A stretch of 34,961 nt of DNA, taken from assembly GCA_964255285.1 (NCBI GenBank), contig CAXUUL010000082.1, positions 1 to 34,961 on the forward strand, read 5' to 3'. The stretch comes from Ionaspis alba. Lineage: Eukaryota. The translations under genes were made by a program, and so were the position numbers. The notes under the pieces were generated by a model that was given only the letters and a program-made list of their open reading frames with translations, had not been told where the DNA came from and did not search any database. Of the stretch, positions 281 to 32,785 are shown one piece after another (position 1 is the first letter of the stretch; each line of letters starts with the position of its first letter).

Positions 281-3200
281 TCATGACAATTTACCATGAT
301 TTTGCTGCTGAAGGTAGTCCTTCAAGACGCGGATGTCCTCTGATATCTCGAACAAGTCTCTCGTCTTCAAGATTTCCAAAACATCGATCTTCTTGAATGC
401 CTTTGCAACGTCAAATGCCGTCTCAAATTTCTCCCCACTAACTTTTATCTTTGCGCCATGGGCCAATAAGGTCTTCACTACGTCGCCCTGCCCATAAGCA
501 CATGCCGCAAATAGAGCTGGACCAAGGAGGTTGGCACGGACTCCACATTTGTCAACCTCTGCGCCTGCTTCTAGTAGCATCTTCACAATGCCATGGTATC
601 CGAACCCAGCCGCAATGTAAAGAGCCGTACTATGCCGACCTCTCCCGCTATTGACAACAGCTTTAAGCTGTGCTGAATCTTCTCTATAAGATAATAATAG
701 CTTCACAGAGTCCTCGTTGCCGCTCCGACAAGCTTCGTACAAAGGTTGTTGGTCGTACAGGTCTTCCACATAGGGATCGCTTCCATGAGAAAGAAGGTAC
801 CGCATTGTATCAGTGACAGCTTTGAAAGCGGACTTGTGCAACGGAGTTTGCCCAATGAAATTCTCTGCGTTGGGATCTGCTCCGCATTCTATAAGCAATT
901 CCACAAGACGGTACGAGGGTTGCTGAGCGGCATAATGAAGAGGAGTCGCATGCCAATCATCGCGGATATTGACGTTTGCTCCATTTTCGATCAGGGCCTG
1001 AACGTTATCTTCGGGGCCCACCTCGGAGGCGATGTGCAGGGCAGTTTCGTGCCAACGATTTCTCTTGTCGACCTCAAATTTGTGCTCAAGAAGTATTTTA
1101 AGGATCGCTGGATAAGGATATTCAGATGCTGTATGTATAACATAGTCGCCGTTTTCATCTGGACATAAGTCTTCATACCCCTTTGACAGCAGTATCCTGA
1201 GAAGATCCGGCTGATTTCTCTTGCAGGCTAGATGGAGCAACTTGCAGACATCTTCCTGAGGCAAAAGATCGTGCTTCAACAAACCCTCGATTAGAGTAGG
1301 ACGATAGGTTTCTAGGTCCTCGAAAGAGAAAGTCCCGTATAGCTCGTGGATGTCTGCATATAGAAGACCTAGATCCATCCAAACAATAGGCTGTGTATCA
1401 ACAATCCAAAGAGCCAGCTTCTTTTTGTTACCATGAGATAGAAGGCTGTGTTCAAGTAAAATGCGAGCGATTTCAGGACTGCGAACAACCGGCAAGGACT
1501 CGGCCAATGGATAGCAGTCAATGCTTTTCATCTCATCAACATCAGATATGGAAAGGATAGAGAGCAGAGTATCTTTATCGGCTGAGGAACAAGCATTTTG
1601 AAGGATAATCCGCCTTTCGTGTATCGATAGACTGGAAAGCTCTGACGGGGCGAACAAGTTAAGCACTTCTTCAAGACCTAACTTAGCCAGTGCTGATGTC
1701 ATGACAGAGTCGCCGCTTGCATTAATCTCGTGGACGTTAGCTCCATACTTCCAAAGAACCGAAACGATATCCCATTGCGAACTGGCGACGGCATGGGTTA
1801 GTGCTGATCGTCCATCTACGCTACAAACTGTGGCGTCGGCTCCTTCTTCAAGAAGTTGTAACACTACTTGAATGTCCTTGAGATGTATTGCAGTTAACAG
1901 ATCCTGTTCTGACAGGACGTCGTTGGGCCGATACTTCAATTGTAGAGTTTGGAAGAGATCCGTTAGCGTAGCAGAAGGATCAGTGCATGAAGCACTCTGA
2001 AAAATTTCTTTGATAAGCTTAAAGACTTCGAGTGTGCAAGAGTCTCGCTCCCATTCTTTGGCCTGCTCCAACACAACCTCGAGACTCGAATGTAATCCAG
2101 AGGTCACACCTGTAGTGGCTGACAGGCTCGCACCACGGGACATGAGATAGGAACATAGCGCAGGCTGTGCTGTAAGGAATGCAAGGCAAAGTGGACTAAT
2201 AGCCGTAAGCATGTAGCCCTTATTCGTATGTTGGATGGACCCCGCCGCGTCGATGTCACCACCTCCCTCTACTAGAAGGTTGACGATTTTAAGTTTGCGA
2301 GAGTCCTCGTCGGGAATAAAGACGACAACGACGCCACGGACAATGAGCGACCAGCGCATAGAATTGTGATATGGATTGATCGCAAGGTGTAAAGCTGTCG
2401 TGTCGTAAGGAGATCTCTCACTTGGATGCGCACCCTCCTCAAGTAGTCTTTGCGTAGTATGGACAAGGAGACAAGAAGCTGCAAGGTGTATTGGAGAGGT
2501 CGCTGCTGCATGAATATAATCCATTAAATTTTGAGCACTTTTTATGTACCAATTCCAAAGCGAAAATGCAAAATTCCGCTTAACTGTGAAAAATCTGGGA
2601 AACAAAGCCGGTTCGGATTCTTGGCCACCACTTTTTAAAAGGTAAGCGTGCATACAGATGGCTGCATGTGGATAAAATGGAAACCTTGCATCGAGATCGG
2701 TGACCGGATGACCATGAACAACACTGCGCAGTATTGACTGGAAGTTGTCCATTGATAGGTAGAGCAAGCATGTCTCCGCAAGATAGAACATGTCCACTTC
2801 TAGATCCACGAGATACTTTCGAGCACTTTGGCTCGAGATCGAATCTTTGTTGGATTCAAGGAATTCCCTAACCGAGAAGTGTGAGAATTCGAGACGGTGA
2901 CTCGACGAGTCCACACGGACCAGGCTGCCACACCATTGGATGATATCTGATTCGCTTGGGATGACGTCAAGATCAAGGTTGGTATGATCAGCCTCGATGG
3001 ATATCGCGTGGGCAAGCCCTCCCAGTGTGAGACTTGCCTCGTATTCGAGGCTTTTTAAGACCAGCCATTTCAAGGTTCGTTGAATCAATTTCTGAGTCTG
3101 GGGAGGATATTTCCACTCAAAACGTTCGAGCAAGCGGATGTATGTGGCAGGAAGGTCTGGCGGAAGCTCTTTCAGGGCTTGCCTCCGCTCACGGTCGTTG

Positions 3201-4746
3201 GGAAGACCGGACAGATAGTCGAGCTGGCATTTGACCCACTGAAACCTGAGGCCCACCATCAAACCAATGTAACAAGATGTCAAGTAGGCTCTCACTCACA
3301 TGCCATCTGCCCCTTGCGTCAAGGCTTCAACGATTTCGCCACGCAGCTTCTCCTCTCTGATCTTCAATGACTGGACCTTACTCGCGACAAATAGCTGCAA
3401 GTCAGAGGATCTTGCAGCAATTGATATGGAAGGAAAAGAAGCCAGAGCTTCATGGATATCTCCTTCTTTCCGGCTGACAATGAGTGTCCGGACGGATCCA
3501 GCATTCTCGTCATGCAGCGAGGAGAGGATCCGAACTAGTTCTGTCCGGTCGATCCCGGGAGCGGATCCGCATTCATCAAGTCCATCAACAACGATGGTGG
3601 CGGCCGCAAAGTTCTTTGACAGGCTTTGCAACAAACTACCGAGTTGCTTCGCTGTTGGGCGTGATGGTGGCTTACCTTTAGGGTGGTGTGCTTCGTAGAA
3701 CGTTGAGGCGTCAATGAGAGCTTCAGGACTTTGCAAGGCGAGCTGGCCGATCAGAGAGCCGAGTACATTCGCTTGATTTTGCGTATCTACGTTCTTGTAG
3801 TCGCAGTAGAAGTAGGCAACCCCAGAGGTCTTAGTAGAGAAGAGCTCCTCAATGATCAAAGATGACAAGATCGTCTTGCCAGCGCCAGGGATACCATATA
3901 TCCAAAGGGCCGAATTAGGCGAATCAACCCATTCCGTATATTCTGGAATGTCAAAGATCCATCGTCCTGTTCCTTCCTGCCAGAGACCCCGAGCGACTTG
4001 ATGGTTATGCGCCGGATTGACTACACTTAGCCAATCAAGTACTATCTTCGCCTCTCGCCCTAGAGGGGAATCAGTGAATAGTTGAAGCATGGTTAGGGGC
4101 TTTAGAAGCACTGACTGTGCTTCTTTTTCATGTTGACATCTAGCATTTTCTTCTGGGTCTTTTCCATCTCAACGACTCGTTCTCCTATCACTCTTGTCTC
4201 TTCCAAAACGTCTCTCATGGACATAAGCTCGCTGGTAGAAAGTGCCAAAATGCATGTGCTTTTGTGGCGCTCTAAGCTAGCAAGGAGCTCCATCGTTTTG
4301 GATTTACTCCATGGCCACTTCAGATCTGATCGAGACAACCGGCGGAAGATGTTCTTCTTAGCAGCTGCTAGTGATGGTTGCACAGCGTGGCTGACATCGG
4401 CGCCTTCGTCGATAGAAGCCAACGCAGCTCTTGAGGCTTTCCGCTCAAATGAGACGAGAACGTTTAGAATTTCATTGAGAGTTCTTTGACATGCGACTAC
4501 ATAGTCTGGAACTTTTGCAACTCGAGTGCCACGCGTATATTCTTCTTCTTCCTCTTCTTCATTCTCCTCAACTGCCCGTGCAAGTCTCTCAATTGCACCA
4601 CAGAAGATGTCCGTTTCGAGAATCAGATTACGAACCTCATGTTCGCATTCCTGAACGGCCTTGAGATACTTGCGGCCTTTTGTGACAACGAGATCAGTGA
4701 GGGAGACCAGTCCGGCAATGCCAGCTGCGAGAGCTAGAGGATCCAT
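281..4746 (-). CDS. Fungal NLR-like STAND protein: HeLo-like/SesA-type N-terminal domain, NACHT NTPase, winged helix, ankyrin repeats (1451 aa, 3 exons)
   Basis: Three ORF-track pieces join through two introns: 4115-4060 (GTCAGT..CTAG, 56 nt) and 3299-3246 (GTGAGT..TCAG, 54 nt). Exons 4746-4116, 4059-3300, 3245-281 total 4356 nt in frame. N-terminus MDPLALAAGIAGLV and LKWPW motif; Walker A GIPGAGKT; Walker B IVVDGLDEC; spliced ADGMFQWVKCQLDYL typical of fungal NACHT proteins; many ankyrin motifs (TALHIA, TPLHYAA, TPLHKSA, TALYIAA). Confidence 0.93.
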
Positions 4747-8177: not shown

Positions 8178-10082
<1,905 letters not shown>

Positions 10083-10182
10083 NNNNNNNNNNNNNNNNNN
10101 NNNNNNNNNNNNNNNNNNNNNNNNNNNNNNNNNNNNNNNNNNNNNNNNNNNNNNNNNNNNNNNNNNNNNNNNNNNNNNNNNN
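10083..10182. other. Assembly gap (100 N) between the convergent 3' ends of glfA and the next gene
   Basis: Run of N. Confidence 0.99.
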
Positions 10183-10189
10183 CACTTAC

Positions 10190-12349
10190 CTAATCCTCAA
10201 AGAACCTTCTCTCACCCCTCGGCGGTGTCCTAACCAGCCCCTCCCTCTCCAATCCCCCATGACCAGGTCCAAGCTCCTCATCCCTAGGCACTCTCCTCCT
10301 CTGCTCACTCCGTTCACGCGCCCTCCTCTCCGCCTCCGTCACGATCCCCAGATTCTCTTGTTCCTCATTGGATCCCGAACCTTCGTCACGTCGTCGCCCC
10401 CTCATCCTCCATCGGCCCTGCCTCCTCGTCGGACTGTCCCTGGTCTCCAGCTCAACCCCACGATGCCGTTCTGTGCGGCCGCCTGCAGGAGCCGTGTAGG
10501 CTCCAATCATCGAGTTCATAGGGGGAAGACCGTTGCGAGGGAGACCGATGGGCGTTTGAGGCTGTGAAGATGCGGGCAAGGAATCGTTGTAAACTCGAAG
10601 GCTTCTTCTGGAGGCTGCGGATGGAGGAGGGGATGGCGAAGGTACGTAGCGTCGATGAGATCGCGTTCTGGGTCTGGGAGCAGTGAACGGTGCGGGTGCA
10701 GGGGCTCGGGAAGGTGGAGATAGTGGTGTGCGGAAGGAGTTGGCGGGTTCGCCAAGGGGGTCTGGAGACGATGAATGAGGAGCCGGACGGAAGGGAAGCG
10801 TGAGATGACGAGAGGTCGCGGAACGGTTTACTGGAGAGGAAGGTAGGACCTCGTTGAATGATACTTGGCGTGGGGTTGCTGAGAAGGGCGGCGGTAAGAG
10901 CGGTAGGATAGGTTCTCCGGGTGGTGTTGAATGGTTAGGAGAAGCATCCGTAGATAGCGAGTAGGCCGGCGAGCGTTGAAGTAAGTCAATAGATGGGCTG
11001 GATATCCCCGGTACATTTGGCGGTGGCGACGAGTGTAGGGAGTATGAATCACTTTCGTCGAGGTAGGATGAGGAAACGGAAAACGTGTTATCCTGGACGG
11101 AGAACTGTCGAACTGCATTGTTTCCAACACCACTGGAGTGCTTCGCAGCTGGTTCCTCTTGGGAGGTCACCGAATCATCAAAGGAGTAGGTCTGGCTTCG
11201 CTGTTTGTACTTCGTCGGCCGATTGGAAGGACGAACGAAATGGCTAGACTCTGCAGCATTGTCATTGCGTGTGGATCCATTCGTTGATCTGAAATGTTTT
11301 TCTGGCGAGCTCGAGGCCGCAGCTTGAGATATGTAAAGCCTTGAGCGCGGTAGACCACCAGATCGGCTTCTAGTGTGCTCGAACAGTTGAGCCTGAAGTT
11401 CATTGGATGGCACTGACAGATGATCTGGTTCACTCTTCATCGACGAAGTTCTTTGTGACTCTGCTCCTATACTCGCATTTGTATCAATCTCGAATGTGGA
11501 TGAATCTGTTCTTCTACCCCGCCTCGTTCGATGAGGAAGAACGAGTTGATCATCTGTGTCAACCATTGAGTCTGACGAGATAGATTCCGGTATCTGTGCC
11601 GTACGCCTCGAAACAGCGTCTGTAGAACCATCCAGATCAAGATGACTTGAGATTTGTCGCTGTACGTGTGAGATTTCTTCCTCCGTACTACCATGACGTC
11701 CACGTCGATGGAATCGGAGAAAGGAAAGTCGGCGTCTTGATCCAGGAATTGGGGCAGGCTCAGTCTTGTGGCTCTCTCGATGCTCCTCCTCAACGTCTGG
11801 ATCCTTGGTGTTCTCAGAGGACAGTAGCGAGTCCGTAGAGAAACGGGACTGGAGGACAGGATCCACTTCGACCTGGTAAGATGATGGCTCATGAAGATCT
11901 CCACTTTTGTCAGCATCAATCCGTGAAAGAGAGTTGTCTCCTTCACCTAGCCGTGTGCTCTCTAGCACGTTAGAGTCGTCGAAACTGGCCAAAGAGCCAA
12001 GAGAGGTCTCCTCGTCGACAAAATGACTCTCGTGATCGGTGCTTAACAATGGGGCGGAAGCAGTTGCCACAATATCCTCCCAGAATGCTGCTGAATTACG
12101 CGGCACTGGTTCGTCAGATATCAGACTGTCCTCATAGTTCGTACCCCTTCCTGCGACGACGTCGGACGGGGGTAGAGGGAAATGATAGGGCAAGAGAAGG
12201 GTGTCTCGGGTATCGGCATGATCCTGCTTTGTGGAATCCGCTACCCGCGCTTTTTGCTCATGTTGTAGCTTTCTATTCTGGTAACGATGTGTATGCCAGA
12301 CCAAGTCCCTGGAGCTAAGTTCAATCTTGGTGGAGGGTAGCCGCAGCAT
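10190..12349 (-). CDS. Ser/Pro/Arg-rich, largely disordered protein (719 aa) with N-terminal Cdc26/Hcn1-like motif
   Basis: Uninterrupted 2160-nt ORF from the first ATG (12349) to TAG (10190). The ORF track starts earlier at a TTG, which is unlikely in a fungus. N-terminus MLRLPSTKIELSSRDL. Function is inferred only. Confidence 0.8.
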   Translation of the reverse strand: MLRLPSTKIELSSRDLVWHTHRYQNRKLQHEQKARVADSTKQDHADTRDTLLLPYHFPLPPSDVVAGRGTNYEDSLISDEPVPRNSAAFWEDIVATASAPLLSTDHESHFVDEETSLGSLASFDDSNVLESTRLGEGDNSLSRIDADKSGDLHEPSSYQVEVDPVLQSRFSTDSLLSSENTKDPDVEEEHRESHKTEPAPIPGSRRRLSFLRFHRRGRHGSTEEEISHVQRQISSHLDLDGSTDAVSRRTAQIPESISSDSMVDTDDQLVLPHRTRRGRRTDSSTFEIDTNASIGAESQRTSSMKSEPDHLSVPSNELQAQLFEHTRSRSGGLPRSRLYISQAAASSSPEKHFRSTNGSTRNDNAAESSHFVRPSNRPTKYKQRSQTYSFDDSVTSQEEPAAKHSSGVGNNAVRQFSVQDNTFSVSSSYLDESDSYSLHSSPPPNVPGISSPSIDLLQRSPAYSLSTDASPNHSTPPGEPILPLLPPPFSATPRQVSFNEVLPSSPVNRSATSRHLTLPFRPAPHSSSPDPLGEPANSFRTPLSPPSRAPAPAPFTAPRPRTRSHRRYVPSPSPPPSAASRRSLRVYNDSLPASSQPQTPIGLPRNGLPPMNSMIGAYTAPAGGRTERHRGVELETRDSPTRRQGRWRMRGRRRDEGSGSNEEQENLGIVTEAERRARERSEQRRRVPRDEELGPGHGGLEREGLVRTPPRGERRFFED

Positions 12350-13306
12350 TATGGAAGTGCGGAACGAAAACGACGGAACAAAAATTAGCACAGTCGGAGA
12401 TGAATGCAGATGAAGCGGAAAATAATTCGAGGCTACTGAAAGAAATGGGAGCAAGACGGCCAGCTAAGGTAGCTGGCGCTGTTGTGCTCTTTCCCATTGT
12501 AGCGTGCTTCGACTTAACAGGTTCGACGAGGAAGGAGCAAGTGAAGGTAGAAAACATCGTGGCTACATTGAAGTTACGTCAAACAGGAGAACAGTTGACA
12601 GGAAATAGCTCAATTATCCCAATGTTCAAGCGAATATGGATGGAAGGACCAGCTATCGCATACTTGAAGATCCAACATGGTTTTCAACAATTCGTGAATG
12701 GCCAGCAAGAATTACAGAGGCAGTGGTGAGTGATCTGAGCATTTTGTTCTCTTCGTCGCGAATTCCCTTTCGAAACGGTAAAGGTTCTGCAAGGACACAT
12801 CTATCTCGTCGCTTGGAGAACGTTGGTGATGAAGGCGATGATGAAGAGGCTGACGAGGAGGATGATGAAGGATAGCTCCACTTCGAACACCAGCAGGGTT
12901 TGTTTGTTAGTGCGTGGAGGGTCAGGACTCAGGAGGGTGAGCTATGCTGTGCTGTATTTAGCCTTGAGCCTTGCTTGGCTTCTGCTTTAGATCGTCCCTG
13001 GATTTCCAACCAAAAGCAATGTAAGGCAGATACAGGAGTCCCTCAATTATGAACTACCTTCACCAATCCTTCCTTCCTGCTTGCTGTAGATGTTTGCGCA
13101 TCACTCTTCTGCTCTCCAGGATGTTTGGTCAAGCAGGCATATAACTCCTCTGAGGTGGATCGCCCACCAAAACCATCCCCGTCTCGAATCTCGTACCCCA
13201 GGGCTTCCGAAATTGCTGGAACTAGCTTCGATCCAGCAGATCGTACTCTCCCAGATCTTCTTTCTTTTCTCTTGCTTGCAAGCTCTCTTGGTACACAATC
13301 ATAGCA

Positions 13307-16025
13307 ATGGATGGCGATCTGAGCTTGTCGCAGTCTCTGGGAGGGCTGCGCATTGCCAACCCAGATGACGAATCTCCTGCAGGTCATGCATCTCGAGGTC
13401 TATCTTCAACAGCCGAATTCTCGACATCGTCGCCTTCAGCAACAGGCAATTCCTACCTCCGCGGGGCCCAGATGTCTTCATTGCCCATTGAGAGGCATGA
13501 TGCATCACTATCGCAACTAGACTTCGATCCAAGTTCTTTCTCCACGGAAAGTGTCAAGATCGAGAAAGCTGTCATCCCCACGGACCCGCGACCACCTGTT
13601 TCTCCGAAGCAAGCATCGTCATACTCCCAACGAAAGAACAATCGCCAGTCCATACCACTCACATACCAAGACCAGCAACAAGCTCAATTTCCCCAATACC
13701 CTACCATGGTACCTCAAAGTCTCAGACAAGCCAATCCTTCTGCACGGCCCATGTCTGTTTTGCAACACCAACAATCCCACAAAAATCCACTACCCGTACG
13801 AGACAGCTCATACCGCCTTCACAGAGAGACTTCGCAGTCTTCGATCTCCGGCATGCCTCGACGAACGAGCTCGAGAGGAGCGGCGACCGCGATGCAGGCT
13901 GGCGTTCCGTCGAGAGAAAGTGTCCACACCGACAGGTCATATCGAAATAGTCAGCAGGTGCCTAGTGGGAATGGTCCACTACCGCCACGACGAAGCTCAC
14001 GGGCGCTACGGGACGGTCCTATCACGAATGGCGTGGTACCTCGGGAACCAGTAGGATCCGGGTCGCCTTATGGTATTGAAGGTGGGCCTCTCGCGAGTAG
14101 TGAGGAATGGCAAGAGAAAGGTGCAGCTGACGTGGTACGGCGAGATATCGACGCCGATGGAAGGCTTGTCGCAAGATATACGAAGAAAGGCGTCAAGGAT
14201 TTCCATTTTGGTCGCACACTCGGTGAAGGGTCTTACAGTACCGTTCTCGCGGCCACAGATCGTCAGACCCATCAACAGTATGCCATTAAGGTTCTCGACA
14301 AACGTCACATCATCAAGGAAATGAAGGTCAAGTATGTTAATATTGAGAAGGACACCCTCAACCGACTTACAGAACATCCCGGCGTTGTGAAACTCTACTA
14401 TACATTTCAGGATGAGCGTTCCCTCTACTTCGTACTTGATCTTGCGAGCGGTGGCGAACTTTTGGGCGTGCTAAAAAGAATGAGGACTTTTGACGAGCAA
14501 TGTACTCAGTTCTATGGTGCCCAGATTTTGGACACCATCGAGTATATGCACTCCAGAGGGATTATACACCGGGATCTAAAGCCAGAAAATGTACTTATGG
14601 ATGACCAGATGCATGTCAAGATCACCGACTTTGGCACTGCTAAGATACTAGACATGACCAGAAGGCCGAGAGCAGACTCCAACGGGGTCCCAATTCCTGA
14701 TAGCGGCAGTTTGACGGATGGTGCGGACGATAACAGAGCAAACTCTTTCGTCGGCACCGCAGAGTACGTGAGTCCCGAGTTACTCACAGACAAGAATGCA
14801 TGCAAAGCAAGCGACTTGTGGGCATTCGGATGTATAATCTTCCAACTACTTGCGGGTCGCCCACCATTCAAAGGCACAAACGAGTATCAGACGTTTCAGA
14901 AGATAGTCGGTCTTGAGTACCAATTCCCCGCGGGCTTTCCTCCAGTTGCTAAGGATTTGGTTCAGAGACTGCTCGTACCGGAGCCGTCCCGTCGATTAAC
15001 AATCGATCACATCAAGAGCCATGAATTCTTTGATGGTATCGTATGGGGTCCGGGATTGTGGAGTCAGAAGCCTCCTCCACTAAAGAGCTATACCCCACCG
15101 GCGGCAGAACCGATTAAGCTTAATGGTCATGCCAATGCCTCTAGCAACGGAGACAGCTTTCCTCCTAACATCGCTTCATCTCAGAACAATCACGCTTCCC
15201 GCAATCCTAGCGCTAGTCCGAACCCTGGAGTTTCACGGCCTACACCCAGGGTTATCACTGAACTTCCACCTCCAAGTCAGCTTGATATCGAATGGTCACC
15301 AGTATTGACGAGGACCAACGAAAGGATACTAAAGCTAGGAAATCTTCTCGTACTATCTTCGCAACCATCAAATAGTCCTCCAGGCAAGCACGGTGGAAAC
15401 AACGATGGAAGCAAGCTTTCGAGATTCTTCGGTGGTGGAGCTTCGAAGAAGCGGCAAAGACTCGTAATGGTGACCTCTAGTGGTCGTATAATCATGGCGG
15501 CGGCAGGAGGTGACGAGAAGAAGACCAAGAGCGAGGTCTCTTTGCTGGAACCTGGATGTACTTGGAGGAAGATGCAGGATCCCAAGGGATTGTCGTATTG
15601 GTCGGTAGATACAGTAAGTTCCATCTCTTCCGGGAAAGCTGCATCCACTGATCTATTACCAATAGCGTGATAAGCATCTCACCTTCGAAGATCCCAAAGC
15701 CGCATCGTCCGATGGATCCGCTACCTCAGCAGCAGCCCAAGACTGGATCGATGCTCTCGAACGGGCTCGAGAGTCTGCCCTCTCACAGAGCTTGAGCAAT
15801 TCCTATTGTGAAGATGATGCATACAAAGATCTACATACAGGTTCTCCGAGCCCGGCCAGTACACTCAATCTAGGCACAGAACGGGGATCCGAGACCAACC
15901 TGGCCGTTAGCAGCGGTCGGCATAACTTGAAGAAACATCCATCTAGCAAGGACGTGGACGAGATTAAAGGCTTCAAGCGTTTTAGTAAGCGGCAGTCAAA
16001 GTCTGGATTGCCAGCTGTGTTTTAA
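13307..16025 (+). CDS. ksg1: 3-phosphoinositide-dependent protein kinase PDK1/Pkh/Ksg1 ortholog with C-terminal PH-like domain (888 aa, 2 exons)
   Basis: Exons 13307-15613 and 15666-16025; intron 15614-15665 (GTAAGT..ACTGAT..ATAG). Kinase motifs LGEGSYSTV, YAIKVLDK, HRDLKPEN, DFGTAK and the PDK1-type activation loop RANSFVGTAEYVSPE. Confidence 0.95.
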
Positions 16026-24434: not shown

Positions 24435-27400
24435 ATGCCTTCAGTAGACAGAGAAGGCTCTCGCGATCGAGAGCTTGTGTTGAGGCACCAGCCTTCATTT
24501 TCGGAGTCTGGTCGATCATCTGTGCCTATGTACGCATTTCCTCCTATATGTCAATTGCGCGTCAATCGTTCCTTTGTATGAGTGAAGACGTGGACAGGCT
24601 GTTATCTTTCTGTATTATCCAATGAGGCTGACGTCGATACTGAGAAAACGTAGGTGGGACAGCTCTGACCCTGACCGCGCTCCACCGCCATTACCATTGA
24701 ATCCGGGAGGCGCATCAAGCCCGATAACAAAGCCAAACACATCCGCAAATGTAGCAGCCGCAGCAGAAGCGTTTGCAGCAAAAGCACGCGAGAACATCTA
24801 CACTACAAATCCTATGCCAGCAAAGTCTCCAGAAAGATCGTTGATTAAAGGGCAATACCACAAACGCATGCAATCACTGCAGAATCCTAACGGCAATATC
24901 AGAGACCTAAGCAATTACCTGGAGAACTCAAGGTCTCCCGAGAGATCTCCAGAGCGGCTATCTCGATCCTCGTTCGAGTACGAGAATCGGTCTCCAGATC
25001 GAAGTCCAACGCGATCGGGCACGCCTACTCCGAGTGCTAGAGACTTGGGTAAAGATCTACCGAGTCTACGTCCCACAAATCGACCTCCCCCAAAAGCTAT
25101 ACTTGGAGAGAACACACCCCAGTCAGCTACTATGCTAGCATTGCAAAACACTCCTACGCCGAAAGAAATGGATACTTCTCTCTCAAACATCACAAATGGA
25201 GCTTCTGCGCTTGTCCGGACACCACATTCCTTCGATGCGATTTCATCCCAGATATTGAGTCTCACAAGTATTGCAACAAACCTACAACGCGAGATGGCTC
25301 AATTGAGCAGGAGGAGTAAAGACAACGCCACCGATCTCGTCAGTCTCAAGGAGGCTACGAACGCCCGGGATGAGGATATCCGAAAGAGTCTTCGCGATCT
25401 AGTCACCAATCTGACAATTCCCTCCTTAGTGGACAGTAGTAGTCGGAACACCAGTCAATACGTGAGGAGCCCTGGATCTTACCTGCTAGACAACAAACCT
25501 CACGGCTCGCCTCCTAGCATGGGCAAGAGTATATCTCTTCCAAGGATACCGAGCCCTGCAAGTTTTGCTGCCTCACTAGAGCGGGATATCACAAGTTCGC
25601 CATCTCCTTTCTCCATGGACGGTGCTGCGAGTATCGCTCTGCTAGAGAAGATCCTACGAGAAATGGGAACCAAAGAGTGTCAAGATCGACTGATGTCTTC
25701 CCTCTCAGAGATAATCAGCAAGTCCACGAACAAAGACGGTGATCCCCTTGTGACGAAGAAGCTGGAGGAAATTATGAATTTCCTCAAGGACAGCTCAGAG
25801 AGTCGAGCATTAGTGACTCGAAGAGACAATGGCAATCGAGTTGGGGACAAACCTCCAAAGCTGGAGCTGGACTTCGAGCATCCTAGGTCTATGCCATTGA
25901 CACGCAACGCCAGGGACGTCACTCCGTACGGCAATGCCAGTCCTGCCACAGGAGACGACACTCGACAGCAATATTCCGGCTCAAGGGCTGCGGATTTTGT
26001 CAGCGAGGACATGCAGAAGCTGCTCAAAAGAATGAAGGACAGCATCACTGAAAGCGGTGGCCTCACGGCAGAAACCAAAACCCTTGTCCGAGAACTCCGT
26101 GGGGAAGTTCTGGGGATGGGTCGAGAAATCGGCCGCAAGTTAGACCAGGCGGAATCGACACAGAAGCAGTCAAGTTCCAGGGACGATGCTCGGGGACCTG
26201 GCAGAGAAGAGATCGCGCGAATCGTGGAAAATGGCCTGGCTGAACTGAGGGAGCACATGAATCGGGTCATGCAAGAGCGCCGACGCCAATCTTCAGCATC
26301 AGTCGTATCGCGCAGCACAGTTGACAGCCAAGAAATATACCATGCAGTCAAGACTGCATTGAGTGAAATGCCTCCTCAACACCAAGTGGCTGTTCAGCAG
26401 CCAGGGTCTGGAATCGAGCGAGAAGAAATTCTTGAGGCAGTCCGTGAGGCATGGGAGACTTACAAGCCGGAGATCGAACTGCAAAACTTTGGCCTCGAGC
26501 GCGATGAAATTCTTCAGTGTTTGAAGGAAGGACTGCAAGACCATCAATCTCAGGGAGCTTTAAAGGAGCTTGGTGGGGCTAGTTACGAGGAAGTACTAGA
26601 TGCCGTGAAGGAAGGTCTGAAGCACTTCACACCGCCTGCGCCCGTCGAGACCGAAGCAGTGATCACTCGAGAAGAGATACTCACTACTGTGCGGGAATGC
26701 TTGGAATCCTTCGACTTTCCAGTATCAACCCTCAGCCGAGATCGTGAACCAGAAATCACACGAGAGGATGTTCTCGATGCTGTCAAGGAAGGCCTGTCAA
26801 CCCAAGCGCCAATATCGCGCGAAATTGAGTTCAATCGAGACGATCTGTTTGATGCTGTCAAAGCTGGACTTGAGGGTGCTCCCACACCAATGAATGGAGT
26901 GGGCGAGCAAGTCCTAGAGAAGATGCAAGATCTCATCGAAGGTATGAGAGGTGAATTCAAACAATACTCAGCGGCCAATGGCAGGGATACCGAACAGGTC
27001 CTCGATGCCATGAAGGACGGTCTAGAGGTCCTTCGAGCAGGAATCGAGACTTACGTTGATCGCGCTGCTGATGTCACAGGCAAAGACGAGATCATTGAGA
27101 CTGTCAAGGATGGACTTGAGCACTTGAGAATTGATCTTGAAGGTACCATTGCGAGTGCGCCGCGTGCTCCTGAAAACACCAACAGCGGAGAGCTACTTGA
27201 CGCTATGGAGAAAGAGTTCGAACATCTTCGCCAAACAATAGCTACCTCAATGCTCCGAAATAGTGGCTCAACCTCTGACAAGGATGAGATTATGGACGCT
27301 CTCAGAGATGGTCTCGACGACATCAAGAGTCATACGGCACGAGCCAATACATCCGATCTGGGATCCGAGACCATAACTATCGTGAGAGAAGAGCTCGAAC

Positions 27401-30400
27401 ACCTCAGGGAAACCTTGGCGACAACCATGACTCGTGGTGGTCCATCTGTTGATCGTGAAGAGATCTTAGAGGTCATAAGAGAAGGCCTCGAGGGCGTTCG
27501 GACCAACGTTGAGCGGGACAGTGGCAGACCTGAAAGCATTCTATCCAATACCAGTGAGCTCTTGGATGCTTTCAATGAAGGCCTAGACGGTTTGAAGCTG
27601 GACATAGAAAAAATCATCAACAAACCTCTCGACATGACCGTCAATTACGAGATCCTTGACACTCTCAAGGAAGGTCTTTCGGGCGTGCGAGCTGATATAG
27701 ACCGTCTTCATACCACACAGCTTGAGCAAGAGTCAATCAGTGGCAAACGAGGTGGAGAAGTCGTGATTGCAGACGGAGAAGCAAAAAGCCTAGGCCGAAC
27801 CGATATCGAAAACCTGGAGATCATGATAACACAATTAAGAATCAAGGTAGAAGCTCTTGACAACATGCCACCGCCACCTCCTCCGACGCAGACCGGAAGC
27901 GGAGTCGGAAGAGAGGACTTTGAACGTTTGGAAGCCACACTGAGAGCAACTCAAGCGGCAGTCTCCGTGCTTTCTGAGCGTGAGCGAAATCATGACTCAA
28001 CAGCTACAAAGGATGATACCGATGCTATCGAAACTCTTCTTCGAAACACCAAAGCCAAACTCGATGAGATGATCTTCCCCGAAGCTGAAGGGATAGCGAG
28101 AACAGAGCATTTGGATGCCGTAGAAACTATCATGAGAAACACTCGAGATGCGGTTGACGACTTCGCCACTCGCCATGAGACCGAAACCGCGTCGAAAGAG
28201 GACGTTGGTGTTCTCGAAGCACTTCTCAAAGAAGTCCGAGCCGGTCTCGAGGAGATGCGGGATAAGGTTTCGGTGGATGAAGCTGGAGGAAAGATCAACA
28301 AGACCGACATCGAGGCCTTGGAGATTCTGTGTCTAGACACTAAGACACAGCTCGAGGAACTAGTTGTGCCAGCAGTCGAGCACTTGCCATCCAAGGTCGA
28401 TATCGAGGGTCTTAGTGGCATGATCAAAGGATTTCAAGAGAAGGTCGAAGCGGAGGCAGAACTCACGGCACAGGCATTCGAGTCTAGGAAAATTGAGCAT
28501 GGCGGTCTCTTCGACAAAATGGAAGATGTCAAAGGCTTTCTTGATGACATTCGACGGGAGCTTAAGTCGAAGATCGAGGGAAGCGGTCAAAGCATCGAGG
28601 TTGTAGCCAAAACTTTAGAGACCGTTGGTGCAGCCGTTGCAGCTAGCGATGCCTCGTCCTCTGTCAGAGAGCTGGCCGAATTGATCAATCGCGAGTTTGA
28701 GCGCTCCCATGGAAACCACGAAGGAACCAGACTCGAGTTGGAGCAACATCGTGACCTCGTTCTGAACAAGCACGAGGACCACAAAGCCATTATTATCGCT
28801 GACCTGAGTAGCAAGATCGATGCACGCTTCGACGAGCTCATGACGAAATACGACGATGCTCAGATTGCTGCTAATGCAAAGTCAGCTGCTCGCGCTGATA
28901 AGGATGAGCAACACACCGAAGCACTGAACGCCACACGCACAATTGCTGACGATCTTCGGATTCTTGTAGACACTCTTGGATCCACCGTTACAGAGTCTTG
29001 TGACCGCATGGGAGAGGACAGTAAGACCGTCTTCAATCGTGTCGAAGACATCGCCGCAAAAATGGAAGAGTCGACCAATAACATTACTATCGAAGGAAAA
29101 GCAGAGCATCAATTTACTCGAGCAGAAATATCCAAGACTTTAGTGGCTGTGGAAGGAGTCCAAGCACATGCTACAGAATATCATCCCAAGATCATGAATG
29201 CCATTACAGATGTACTGAACATTGTTGGACAACATTATGAACAGGCTCAGAGATCGACCGAGGAGATCAAAACCAGTGTCAATGCAATTCCTTCCGCTAT
29301 ACCTATCCCTGCTATCACAGCTCCTCATCCGTCACCATCCATAGAAGCCATACTTCCGAACGAAAAATACGACGATAAAGAAATACACGCCAAACTCGAC
29401 AGACTCGTCGAACATGCTACAGAAGCAGGCAAGTCTATAGCGCAATTTAGTTTATTGGAGCAGATTAAAGAGCAAGTCGCTGTTACTGCTGCCCAACTGA
29501 GTGCCTTTGTCGCGGTACAGCAAGCTGCCACCACAGAGACGCATGAAAACAGAGCACGAGAAGTAGAGGAAGCTTCGATCGCCCTTGAAAAGCGCATTGC
29601 ACAGAAAAAAAGCGTGGAATCAGAGATAGTCCAGCTTTCCGAGGAGAAGTCCATGCTCACCGGCTCTGTCGAAAATCTCAGAAAAGAGGAGAAAGACCTC
29701 ACCAACCTCAAATCAAGACTACAAGCAGACCTATCTAGCCTGGAGACAGCTTTGGAGATCAGGAGGGAGGAGATGCAGCTCATGGAGGCAAGAGCGGAAG
29801 GCCTAGAAAGAAGAATCCTGGAAGGAGTCCTAGATCATTCTCGCTCCCTCCTGATTACGTCTAGACCGCAATCAAGCCTTAAAGCCATGAATCTCAAGCG
29901 GGTAACCAGCACCGCCTCAAATGCCACAACCGTGACCAAGAATTCGATGGCTGGAAGTAACACGGTTGGAAGCGCAATCAGCAGCGGAGTGGGTATGGCT
30001 CTGAAGAGGAGACCACCAATTCGAAGTCCTGCTGGCAGCCAGGCAGGTACGCCTAAAGGCGACAGACGAATTCTCAGTCTCAGCACCATTGGCGCTAATA
30101 AAGGTCATGGCAATGAGAGATCAATGGTGCTTGCAAATCCGTCCTTGAATGCCAATGGAGCATCTAAAGGCAGTGCCGCGTTCGGATCTGGAGGTCTGAA
30201 GAGAAGTCACAGCGTCAAGTCCAACTTCCCTGTCCGCAAGACCAGCTGGGGCGGTACGAAACAGGTCGGGATGTATGCCGACGACCTTGAAGAAGATAAG
30301 GAAAACAGTGTGTTAGATGAAGAAGATGAAGGTGAGGGTAGTGATGGTGGAACGGAACGAAGGACTAGCTATGGAACAGAAACTGAGAGACGAACCAGCT

Positions 30401-30756
30401 ACAGTGGAACGTACACTGGGACTGGAAGCTACGGGACTGGAAGCGTGGAAGGGGACGAAGAGAGGAGAACCAGCTACGCAACCTCCACCGTGGGAACGCT
30501 CGGAGTGAAAGATGCTGAGTTTGACGAAGAAGACGACCGGTCAGTCTCTGAGGGAGAGCAGTCTGAGCAGCTTGAAAGGAGCATGGTTGGGGCTGGAGAT
30601 CAAAACCTCACCCTCTATCAAGGCGACATTTTGGCAACCAAGGACACCGGCGACCCACACGACCTTGTCTTGTATGGCTTGCCCAGCGACAGCGGCATTG
30701 GCACTGATATGCCAACAGCAGCTCTCGAAGGAGGTAGTGATTACTTCAGGAAGTAA
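24435..30756 (+). CDS. Large helical-repeat/coiled-coil protein (2065 aa, 2 exons) of unknown function
   Basis: Exon 1 24435-24529, intron 24530-24653 (GTACGC..GCTGAC..GTAG), exon 2 24654-30756; the junction reads SSVPM-WDSSDPDRAPPPLPLNP. Long acidic amphipathic repeats, a heptad coiled coil near 29550-29830 and disordered termini. No P-loop seen. Confidence 0.9.
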
Positions 30757-31143: not shown

Positions 31144-32785
31144 ATGAATCCTCAAATGCAGGCGCAATACCGCAACCTGCAACAGTCGGCACAAAGAAAT
31201 ACTCATACGTCTTCTAGGCGCGGACCCGGTAAGATTGGGCCCTAACCCAACCTCTTCTAATTTGAGCTGATGATGACGCCTCCATTCTCTAAGGCCCCAT
31301 GATTGTTGGTCACAATACTCAATCGGCTGTCTCCCATCAACAGGCGCTACAGATTCAGCAGAGACAGGAGGTCCAGACTCGCGAGATGGAAGCTGCGAAA
31401 CGACGCGCCCGGCGACCTACCGACAAGAACATACCAGAGGGCGTGGAAGACGTGATCATTGGAAATGGTGTCCAGCAATACAAAGATCTAAGGGATGTGG
31501 AGAGAAGGCTAGATGCTGTGATGATGAGGAAACGCTTAGACCTCCAAGATCCGAGGCCACAATCTCACGAGAGAACAAGAACGCTGCGGATCTGGATTTC
31601 CAATACAGCAGAAAATCAACCCTGGCAAGGCAGAGGCTTGGATGAGAACGCTTTTGATTTCTCTACGGGACTAGAAGGGACATACAAAGTTAAGATTGAG
31701 GGCCGCCTCCTGGAAAATGACGGGTCAGGTCCAACCTCGGAGGACGATCTTGTGGAACAAGATGACGATGCTATGGACTATGACAGTCAGAAGAACTCTT
31801 CTGAGAGAGCAAAGATAGCTCCCAAGCGGCAGAGGCAAAAACTTTCACACTTCTTTAAGCAGATCACGGTCGACTTCGATCGTTCCAAGAACCTCCAACC
31901 AGATGGTGTCTCACAGATAGAGTGGAAGAGGCCATCATTCCCGCCCAATATTCCTAGCCTTCCTGCCAGTGCTAACTTCGACTGCCTCGAGTTTGAAAGG
32001 AAAAGCGATGAAAATATCAACTGCACAATCAACCTCTACCGTGATGAGACACCTGAGCGTTTTGCAATAAGTAAGCCCCTGGCCGACATTGTGGATATGG
32101 AAGAGGGAACAAGAGACGCCATAATTATGGGTCTCTGGGAGTATATCAAAGCAATGAAATTACAACAGAACGACGAAAAGCGTCTCATCCAATGTGACGA
32201 TCGTTTACGAACAGTGGGTCCAGGAGGTCCGGTGCTATCGACCAAGTTCCGCTAACAGATCCTCCACAGATTTTCAAATCGGATACTGTCTTCTTTCCGC
32301 ACATGTTCGACCTGATCATATCGCACATCTCCCCGCTCCCGCCTCTGAAGCTGCCTTATACAATTCGCGTGGATCCGGAATACCATGCTTCTCCCAGCCC
32401 CACGGTTTACGACATTCTCGTGCCTGCCGAGGATTCATTGCGTGCTCAAATGCAAGCTATCACACACAGTCCAACTTATCCGGCTACGCTACAGGAGATT
32501 GCCAAGCTGGATCATCATCTGGCAACTATAGTCCAGGGTATCAACCACTCCAAGGCCAAGCATGCGTTCTTCAATAGCATGAGTAAAGACCCAGCTACCT
32601 TCATCAGGAGATGGACAAGCAGTCAGAAGAGAGATCTGGAGATCATCCTTGGAGAAGCAACTAGAGGAGCTGGTGATGATGGTATGGCCGGAGAGTTCAG
32701 GAGAGGCGGTAAAGATGGCGTTTGGGGATCGGACATGGTGAGGGAAAGTGTGGGACTCATGGTTGCCTCTGCTAGCAAACGATGA
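31144..32785 (+). CDS. ssr3: SWI/SNF and RSC complex BAF60-type subunit (Snf12/Swp73/Rsc6/Ssr3 family, SWIB domain), 506 aa, 3 exons
   Basis: Exons 31144-31228, 31294-32213, 32270-32785. Introns 31229-31293 (GTAAGA..TAAG) and 32214-32269 (GTGGGT..GCTAAC..ACAG). Motifs RRPTDKNIP, ERRLDAVMMRKRLD, LRIWISNT, SWIB LWEYIKAMKLQ..CDDRLR, and DPATFIRRWTSSQKRDL. Confidence 0.94.

Follow-up and report, generated by a model that had tools for sequence, protein, structure and literature searches.

The window analysed here, positions 1-34,961 on the forward strand of contig CAXUUL010000082.1 from Ionaspis alba (GCA_964255285.1), encodes on its minus strand (10190..12349) a protein of 719 amino acids plus stop, P0001, in a single unspliced open reading frame with the N-terminus MLRLPSTKIELSSRDL. 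Judged from its sequence, P0001 is very likely the Pezizomycotina form of Cdc26 (Apc12, Hcn1), a subunit of the APC/C (anaphase-promoting complex or cyclosome), and the reading preferred here, that it is Cdc26 plus a regulatory, motif-bearing tail, is assigned a probability of about 0.6. The best-conserved element of the tail is a fixed 17-mer, [F/I/M/L]x[V/I]Y[N/D]D-x6-QPxTP, which begins with an ABBA-like hexamer and is the sole tail element common to the whole family.

Upstream of the start of P0001, in frame, there are 38 codons without ATG and then a stop (12464-12466), so that the MLR start is the first possible one in its frame; an upstream start, which an earlier note on this DNA had considered, has no in-frame ATG to use. 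The coordinates given in that note were right for the open reading frame and for the motifs LRVYND (residues 584-589, 10583-10600) and EEQENL (residues 662-667, 10349-10366), and the proline-directed sites that it listed are present (QPQTP 596-600, SPTRR 639-643, RTPPR 707-711). In an AlphaFold2 model made from a 35-sequence alignment, the mean predicted local distance difference test (pLDDT) value is 46, and 563 of the 719 residues, described in the earlier note as mostly disordered, fall below 50. The only helices are at residues 13-37 (pLDDT about 90), 87-97 and 669-686, and P0001 is modelled as a short structured head followed by a long disordered tail. A run of 100 N (10082-10181) begins 8 bases past the stop codon and leaves the open reading frame untouched. 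The features of the protein are as follows.

10190..12349, minus strand: whole coding sequence, 719 amino acids plus stop, no intron needed
12314..12349, minus strand: putative N-terminal anchor, residues 1-12, MLRLPSTKIELS (Pfam PF10471, Hcn1 match, conservation)
12239..12313, minus strand: predicted helix after the anchor (DLxWHxxRHxxR), residues 13-37 (AlphaFold2, conservation)
12065..12121, minus strand: island I[SV]SxEPVPRxSxxFWDxVLA, residues 77-95, with a short predicted helix at 87-97 (window scan, AlphaFold2)
11621..11641, minus strand: acidic island LDLDGS[ST], residues 237-243 (window scan)
11294..11368, minus strand: island SRSGGLPRSxLYISQAAASSSPEK, residues 328-352, holding RSxL (335-338) and SPEK (348-351)
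11195..11233, minus strand: basic island with the consensus PPRRRKxYKxRS, residues 373-385 (alignment, window scan)
10856..10903, minus strand: island PLPPPFSxTPRxxSF, residues 483-498, with R494 invariant (window scan)
10529..10603, minus strand: main tail island SLRVYNDSLPASSQPQTPIGLPRNG, residues 583-607, with the ABBA-like hexamer (584-589), a 6-residue spacer and QPQTP (596-600)
10481..10498, minus strand: island YTAPAG, residues 618-623, with T619 and P621 invariant and A620 conserved in at least 90%
10424..10435, minus strand: full cyclin-dependent kinase (CDK) consensus site SPTR (mostly TPTR in orthologues), residues 639-642, with P640 conserved in at least 90%
10346..10366, minus strand: [D/E/G]QEN island EEQENLG, residues 662-668, in 30 of 35 aligned orthologues
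10292..10345, minus strand: predicted charged helix after QEN (E[AG]ERR...), residues 669-686 (AlphaFold2 block pLDDT 80 and 67)
10217..10237, minus strand: C-terminal LVRTPPR with a TPxR site, residues 705-711, LERTPPR in many orthologues (alignment)

The first search for relatives, over 5.8 billion proteins, returned 36 proteins of 494-826 amino acids, and all the named ones are hypothetical proteins of lichen-forming fungi, including Schaereria, Xylographa, Hypocenomyce, Trapelia, Acarospora and Teloschistaceae. These orthologues can be aligned with P0001 over its full length (query cover 99-100% for several), and 35 of the 37 matches make up alignment A1, from which P0007 and P0009 were left out. 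An exhaustive profile search of 1.84 billion representatives gave 391 proteins at E<=0.001, of which 202 had E<=1e-10 and 99 had E<=1e-30. A more diverse profile, A3, consisting of 34 more distant matches and P0001, was searched in a collection of named proteins and found 102, none of them a named protein, in Cladonia (Lecanoromycetes), Rutstroemia and Coleophoma (Leotiomycetes), a Xylariaceae species and Hypoxylon (Sordariomycetes), and, among the Chaetothyriales, Exophiala, Cladophialophora, Fonsecaea, Capronia, Knufia, Cyphellophora, Phialophora and Rhinocladiella. Cirrosporium and Thelocarpon are also among the relatives, names having been obtained for 2 of 10 distant cluster representatives. 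The relatives are about 340 amino acids long in Xylariales, about 450-580 in Chaetothyriales and 600-830 in lichen fungi. Eurotiales, Hypocreales, Sordariales and Dothideomycetes were not among the named matches of a search that scored 8000 candidates only, which is no sign of their absence. The collected set (P0001-P0269) comprises 269 proteins, fragments included.

The evidence that P0001 is Cdc26 is concentrated at its N-terminus. The Pfam profile ANAPC_CDC26 (PF10471) matches residues 1-48 with its positions 1-48 of 74 (E 0.0029), and it is matched at E<=1 by 23 of 35 close orthologues in A1 (best E 2.8e-6) and by 23 of 35 diverse relatives in A3 (best E 3.3e-6); no other Pfam family recurs in P0001 or in these 70 scanned members. 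A precomputed PF10471 label is carried by two database relatives, P0034 and P0180, and among the nearest clusters in the ESM Atlas, all of unnamed Ascomycota proteins and taken as a lead only, one (score 0.88) has 12% of its members labelled with PF10471. A profile made from residues 1-30 of 22 orthologues was searched against 177,635 distinct PDB sequences at E<=10, and its sole match was Schizosaccharomyces pombe Hcn1 (2xpi), aligned Met to Met over chain residues 2-17 (MLRRNPTAIQITAEDV) with 12.9 bits; the match is weak by score and, as read from the alignment, specific by rank and register. Within A1, M1 is invariant, L2, R3 and L11 are conserved in at least 90% of sequences, and so are D15, L16, W18, H19, R22 and R26 of the following helix. 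The N-terminal motif is found at residue 1 in 186 of the 269 collected relatives.

The modelled head also has the build of a Cdc26 head, with residues 1-12 non-regular and then a helix at 13-37 (block pLDDT 90, 94 and 76). The N-terminal 13 residues of Cdc26 insert into the tetratricopeptide repeat (TPR) groove of Apc6 and the next helix packs inside the superhelix; the chain beyond it is disordered and, in the human and yeast structures, touches no further subunit, and the S. pombe crystal shows the N-terminal acetyl group (PMC11473103). According to a 2007 paper, only the very N-terminus is common to Cdc26 orthologues, among which an expressed sequence tag from Aspergillus nidulans is listed (PMC1847674), so that a Cdc26-like N-terminus is already in print for a filamentous ascomycete. 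The Cdc26/Hcn1-like N-terminus proposed in the earlier note is borne out by the Pfam match from Met1, by Hcn1 as the sole PDB match and by MLR as the true start of the frame.

Several observations pull the other way. P0001 scores 18.8 bits with PF10471, below the gathering cut-off of 24.5 bits, so that the Pfam comparison proposed in the earlier note succeeded in extent and register and fell short in score; 12 of the 35 members in each of A1 and A3 lie above E 1; and the Hcn1 match in the PDB has an E of 0.59. To these may be added the length of P0001, 719 amino acids vs 85 in human Apc12 (PMC5717348). They favour the alternative that P0001 is not an APC/C subunit, its N-terminal likeness over some 16-48 residues being convergence or chance in an unrelated disordered fungal protein. 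That alternative is considered highly improbable: query and profile, or query and chain, are matched from precisely Met1 onwards, the match recurs independently in 46 of the 70 scanned members, Hcn1 is the only PDB chain found, and the A. nidulans sequence had already been placed among Cdc26 orthologues by its N-terminus.

A further point against the identification is that a second, short Cdc26 may be encoded elsewhere in the Ionaspis alba genome. A search for shorter proteins with residues 1-48 gave one candidate, P0115, which is fragment-like and 159 amino acids long. P0115 is encoded on a contig of 13,259 bases and matches only the first 134 or so residues of the family; its first 22 residues are identical with the MLR segment of P0002, the full-length relative that is closest. 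Either its gene model is truncated or its assembly frameshifted, or it is a genuine short form that occurs in a near relative.

The tail was examined for conservation and for chance occurrence of motifs. Mean column identity in A1 is 24%, and the tail outside its islands is unalignable. A sliding-window scan of A1 shows about ten islands (1-22, 77-95, 237-243, 328-352, 373-385, 483-498, 571-574, 583-607, 618-623 and 666-668), in which the mean top-residue fraction is 0.63-0.79 vs 0.38 overall; the three segments that the earlier note had singled out for an orthologue alignment, the N-terminus, VYND..QPQTP and QEN, are among them. The invariant columns are M1, R335, S336, L338, S347, S348, R494, D589, Q596, P597, T599, T619 and P621. 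In 5000 shuffles of P0001, the ABBA pattern, present once, was expected 0.37 times and occurred at least once in 1565-1598 of the shuffled sequences; RxxL was seen 7 times vs 5.95 expected, [ST]P 16 times vs 15.2, and QEN once vs 0.07. The motifs in P0001 taken alone are not beyond chance, and the signal is their conservation.

Whole-length A1 as a profile against the PDB gave two weak, unrelated matches only (3g9g_A, E 0.05; 5zji_D, E 1.2), and by these profile comparisons the tail belongs to no described family. Fusion of the tail with another small APC/C subunit was considered and rejected, there being no such Pfam family in the 70 scanned members.

The main tail island was surveyed by scanning the 269 proteins for an aromatic-x-acidic triplet no more than 22 residues upstream of QPx[TS]P, which was found in 239. 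At the positions that the scan did not impose, P1 is F in 106, I in 51, M in 29, L in 25, Y in 16, V in 9 and other residues in 3; P3 is V in 176, I in 61 and others in 2; and P5 is N in 183 and D in 47. P2 varies freely (R in 58, S in 55, P in 37, T in 35, and others). The two positions set by the scan read Y in 232 and F in 6 at P4, and D in 235 and E in 4 at P6. The spacer from P6 to the Q of QPxTP is 6 residues in 235 of the 239, and D589, Q596, P597 and T599 are invariant in all 35 sequences of A1. The island is present in named members of Chaetothyriales, Leotiomycetes and Xylariales, and by a composite pattern it occurs together with the N-terminal motif in 185 of the 269 relatives (181 of the 231 with at least 400 amino acids), a co-occurrence that spans four named classes or orders.

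ABBA motifs have the consensus Fx[ILV][FY]x[DE], with three non-polar side chains in the groove between propeller blades 2 and 3 and the P6 acid on an arginine of blade 2 (PMC5717348). This strict form is found in 105 of the 239 relatives, including most Chaetothyriales (FSVYNDSLPASSQPQTP). The looser pattern [ILVF]x[ILMVP][FHY]x[DE], which we take to be the ELM form of the motif, is found in 191, or in 220 if M is allowed at P1. LRVYND of P0001 fits the looser form and misses the strict one. The earlier note's conjecture about LRVYND..PQTP is thereby upheld as far as conservation goes, the island being ABBA-like position by position across the 239 relatives. Whether it is also a functional ligand is weighed against a less favourable group of facts. 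P0001 has L and not F at P1, and an ABBA pattern alone is expected 0.37 times in each shuffled sequence. The relatives were gathered with profiles containing the island and the N-terminus, so that the frequencies are partly circular, although the position-by-position pattern is not. The conserved block, at 17-25 residues, extends far beyond the ABBA hexamer, and both N/D at P5 and LPxxxQPQTP are conserved, although ABBA binding needs neither; with such a longer block and such positions, the island could fit another pocket. A profile of the C-terminal region (A5, 12 short relatives) had 0 matches in the PDB at E<=10. On the favourable side, the island region is disordered and accessible in the model, as suits an ABBA ligand, with pLDDT below 50 for 577-586, about 71 for 591-600, and only a 3-residue turn.

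These facts bear on a second alternative, in which P0001 is Cdc26 and the tail islands are assembly elements laid along scaffold subunits, for example in the TPR grooves of Apc3 or Apc8, in the manner of Apc13, Apc15, Apc16 and Apc9, the ABBA likeness being coincidental. The small APC/C subunits are all extended irregular chains on large subunits, several of them held by TPR grooves (PMC11473103), and a fixed 17-mer, some of whose conserved positions are not needed for ABBA binding, within a tail of about ten islands rather than three, would suit such a role. This account is nevertheless thought unlikely. In the human and yeast structures, as described in the same paper, Cdc26 touches Apc6 alone, no Pfam family of another small subunit was found in the 70 scanned members, and ABBA binding calls for just such a pattern, in which P1, P3, P4 and P6 are specified and P2 is not.

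A predicted complex bears on the same choice. Coactivator genes were picked from public metagenome contigs with a degenerate pattern for a short family motif. One locus, L080, contains a frame of 497 codons without interruption, in which there are a C-box and an IR tail, and the PDB chains that match it best are human FZR1 (E 1.3e-149) and Saccharomyces cerevisiae Cdh1 (8a3t_B, 7.4e-126; 4bh6_A, 3e-115). L080 shares its N-terminal region and a 'DWG..IR' end with loci L043 and L010, features that we take to be Pezizomycotina-like. The Cdh1-type frames L010:1447-3489 and L043:2-1429 have an extra 25-55 residues in the propeller after the GGGTADRxIKFWN blade, which represent a loop specific to the lineage or else an intron read through in frame.

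The WD40 part of the L080 Cdh1 (residues 165-480), a stand-in from a metagenome, was predicted together with residues 572-675 of the P0001 tail. The score was 0.58 (runs 0.57, 0.60 and 0.58) vs 0.15 for the best of 3 controls, which gives weak support with this stand-in Cdh1; a control in which the propeller (chain 1) was replaced scored 0.00 vs 0.58. The runs agree in at least 21% of contacts, partner pLDDT is at least 36, and no interface was given. The score mark is reached by 51 of 78 solved complexes and by 2 of 108 mismatched pairs. Three considerations temper the result: just 5 of the 78 solved complexes reach the mark at a score of 0.60 or less, as do all 4 of the mismatched pairs (of 180) that passed; the prediction was made without orthologue alignments and with a stand-in Cdh1, by a method uncalibrated for peptides or disordered chains; and the Acm1-Cdh1 and BubR1-Cdc20 complexes are solved, so that a pass may reflect memory of like complexes. 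The weakness of the pass is in keeping with an assembly role for the tail, against which the replaced-propeller control speaks. The prediction modestly raises the odds that the tail binds a coactivator, to a level that still falls somewhat short of even, and is uninformative on the docking residues.

The earlier note had also proposed a D box, a KEN-like motif and an abundance of SP/TP sites. Its D box, RRSL (581-584), is not conserved: of 34 aligned orthologues, 4 have the R where it is needed, and RxxL in exact form occurs in 4 of 230 relatives. There is another candidate, RSRLYISQA (335-343), in which the R, S and L of RSxL are invariant in 35 of 35 orthologues, as are S347 and S348. Compared with the D box consensus RxxLx[D/E][hydrophobic]xN[N/S] (PMC5717348), this island fits at P1 and P4 only, with I at P6, S at P7 and A at P9, which counts against the docking reading. 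The island is shared by 91 of 269 relatives and by 0 of 12 named Chaetothyriales proteins checked, and ten residues past RSxL lies SPEK (348-351), a full CDK consensus.

A KEN box often has D or N before it and P after it. The KEN-like motif of P0001, QEN, is kept as an island by 30 of 35 orthologues from the lichen group, and to that extent the proposal stands, but there is no proline after QEN. Among the 230 relatives, [DEGNA]QEN occurs downstream of the main island in 94, preceded by D in 37, E in 35 and G in 19, at a median distance of 78 residues from P1 of the island; in none of the 230 is it KEN, and this too counts against docking. It is missing from most Chaetothyriales and Xylariales members and was not found in the 12 named Chaetothyriales and 2 Xylariales proteins checked. 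A reading of LGIVTE, after QEN, as the LxxIxE motif of PP2A-B56 was rejected, as it is not kept in orthologues (judged by eye).

As for the proline-directed sites, their number shows no excess, and the part of the claim that survives is that several single sites are conserved, namely S348 (SPEK), T599 (QPQTP), S/T639 (TPTR in most) and T708 (TPPR). In 125 relatives [ST]Px[KR] occurs within 80 residues past the main island. Such sites suggest a third alternative, that P0001 is Cdc26 and its tail serves CDK-Cks or phosphatase docking, nuclear import or its own stability, tuning APC/C phosphorylation or localisation. The conserved CDK sites SPEK (348-351), [ST]PTR (639-642) and TPPR (708-711), the invariant QPQTP, the [ST]Px[KR] sites that follow the island and the basic island RRRKxYKxRS would all have a place in it, and P at -2 of the TP in QPQTP presumably fits the docking preference of Cks1. 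This account is regarded as rather improbable, since SP/TP density follows composition and the invariant hydrophobic-x-hydrophobic-Tyr-x-Asp block is left unexplained; it is, moreover, compatible with phospho-switched ABBA docking and not exclusive of it.

The preferred reading of P0001 as Cdc26 with a regulatory tail leads to a proposed mechanism. Residues 1-12 would lie threaded in the TPR groove of Apc6/Cdc16 and anchor each copy of Cdc26. Apc12 is present in two copies per complex (PMC5717348), so that, with the head plugging Apc6, each APC/C would carry two tails. The remaining 680 or so residues would form a disordered tail with about ten conserved short motifs, in which the main island would, as a tethered ligand of the ABBA type, bind the WD40 propeller of Cdh1, of Cdc20 or of both; with a disordered linker of about 550 residues it could span the distance between the TPR lobe and the coactivator propeller. 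The island would be switched by proline-directed phosphorylation at T599, which is invariant, and at the flanking SPxK/TPxR sites, a step suggested by the invariant TP that lies six residues downstream and by the full CDK sites nearby.

Docking of the tail to a coactivator is a plausible proposal. That [F/I/M/L]x[V/I]Y[N/D]D-x6-QPxTP acts as a tethered, phospho-switched ABBA-type ligand is put forward tentatively, at rather less than an even chance, and this docking step is less likely than Cdc26 identity with a regulatory tail. An ABBA ligand alone would leave the D-box and KEN sites free, and therefore its simplest effects would be to keep more coactivator on the complex or to compete with substrates that depend on ABBA motifs, S-phase cyclins for example. 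With the RSxL and QEN islands of the lichen-fungus group, the set could become complete and resemble the pseudosubstrate Acm1; such a full pseudosubstrate is conceivable only where both islands exist, and both are off consensus. The most extensive form of the proposal is doubtful: in it the Pezizomycotina APC/C would carry its own coactivator ligand, as two Cdc26-tethered, CDK-switched ABBA motifs with a full set of ABBA, RxxL and xEN in some lineages, and these would gate Cdh1/Cdc20 occupancy or substrate choice.

Cdc26 is usually viewed as a tiny, chaperone-like plug for Apc6 with a dispensable and unconserved tail. Lichens, black yeasts and many plant-associated moulds belong to the largest group of filamentous fungi, and in that group the tail would be several hundred residues long with a near-invariant motif of a type that binds the substrate receptors of the ligase; a core scaffold subunit would then have gained a regulatory role so far not looked for. 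A ligand built into the ligase would, if the proposal is true, take over the task of free inhibitors like Acm1 or Emi1, neither of which is known in these fungi. Six residues and one threonine would then offer a concrete, mutable handle on mitotic exit and G1 control in these organisms. The literature search, which covered its sources in excerpt, found no published description of a long, motif-bearing Cdc26; in the excerpts of a Magnaporthe oryzae paper 'the Cdc26 subunit' is merely mentioned among misregulated genes (PMC5542705). It is the long conserved tail that this search did not find in print; the Cdc26-like N-terminus in a filamentous ascomycete is already known.

Other features were noted in the window. 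The N run downstream of P0001 breaks a convergent plus-strand frame (9427..10233; an X block in the translation) and represents a gap in the assembly or else a stretch that was withheld; ahead of the run, this frame has no Pfam match at E<=0.001. Divergent from P0001, with about 875 bp between them, is an 814-codon frame for a Ser/Thr protein kinase (13226-15670, plus strand; Pkinase, E 6.2e-66). Two adjoining frames at 281-4168 on the minus strand encode an NPHP3_N/NACHT NTPase (E 7.9e-39) and a long ankyrin array (Ank_2, E 1.3e-57); together they look like a fungal gene of the NOD-like receptor (NLR) type, probably one gene split by an intron or frame change. An uninterrupted 2056-codon frame (24586-30756, plus strand) has no Pfam match at E<=0.001, and a frame at 31293-32255 (plus strand) has a SWIB/MDM2 domain (E 1.5e-17).

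Compared with known systems, the tail of P0001 is like the Apc1 loop (in the Apc8 groove), Apc13, Apc15/Mnd2, Apc16 and Apc9, which are disordered, groove-occupying APC/C segments, some of them phospho-regulated (PMC11473103, PMC5717348). Unlike P0001, none of these is described in the excerpts with an ABBA-type ligand, and none of their Pfam families matches the tail. With the ABBA-KEN cassettes of BubR1/Mad3 and Bub1 and the ABBA motifs of cyclin A and Clb5 the tail shares a six-residue ABBA-like pattern in a disordered region, which in those proteins binds between propeller blades 2 and 3 (PMC5717348); they are checkpoint proteins or substrates, whereas P0001 would be a core subunit and has the x6-QPxTP extension (235 of 239 relatives), which none of them has.

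Acm1, the Cdh1 pseudosubstrate inhibitor of S. cerevisiae (PDB 4BH6), is likewise disordered, with an ABBA-type hexamer and CDK sites nearby. Its layout combines an ABBA (A) motif with a KEN box and a D box (PMC5717348), and the tails of the lichen group add RxxL and xEN islands to the hexamer, making three degron-like elements per chain. Acm1 is a free protein, whereas P0001 would be anchored in the ligase; in P0001 the xEN is QEN and not KEN, RSxL departs from the later D-box positions, the motifs are spaced by about 250 and about 78 residues, and no relation between the two is detectable by sequence.

The closest likeness is to Cdc26/Apc12/Hcn1 themselves, with which P0001 shares a Met-initiated extended N-terminus, M-L/I-R-x-x-P-T/S-x-I-x-L, followed by a helix and a disordered C-terminal part. 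P0001 differs from them in its length, 719 amino acids vs the 85 of human Apc12 (PMC5717348) and the 81 residues of the Hcn1 chain, and in having a tail with about ten islands common to classes of Pezizomycotina.

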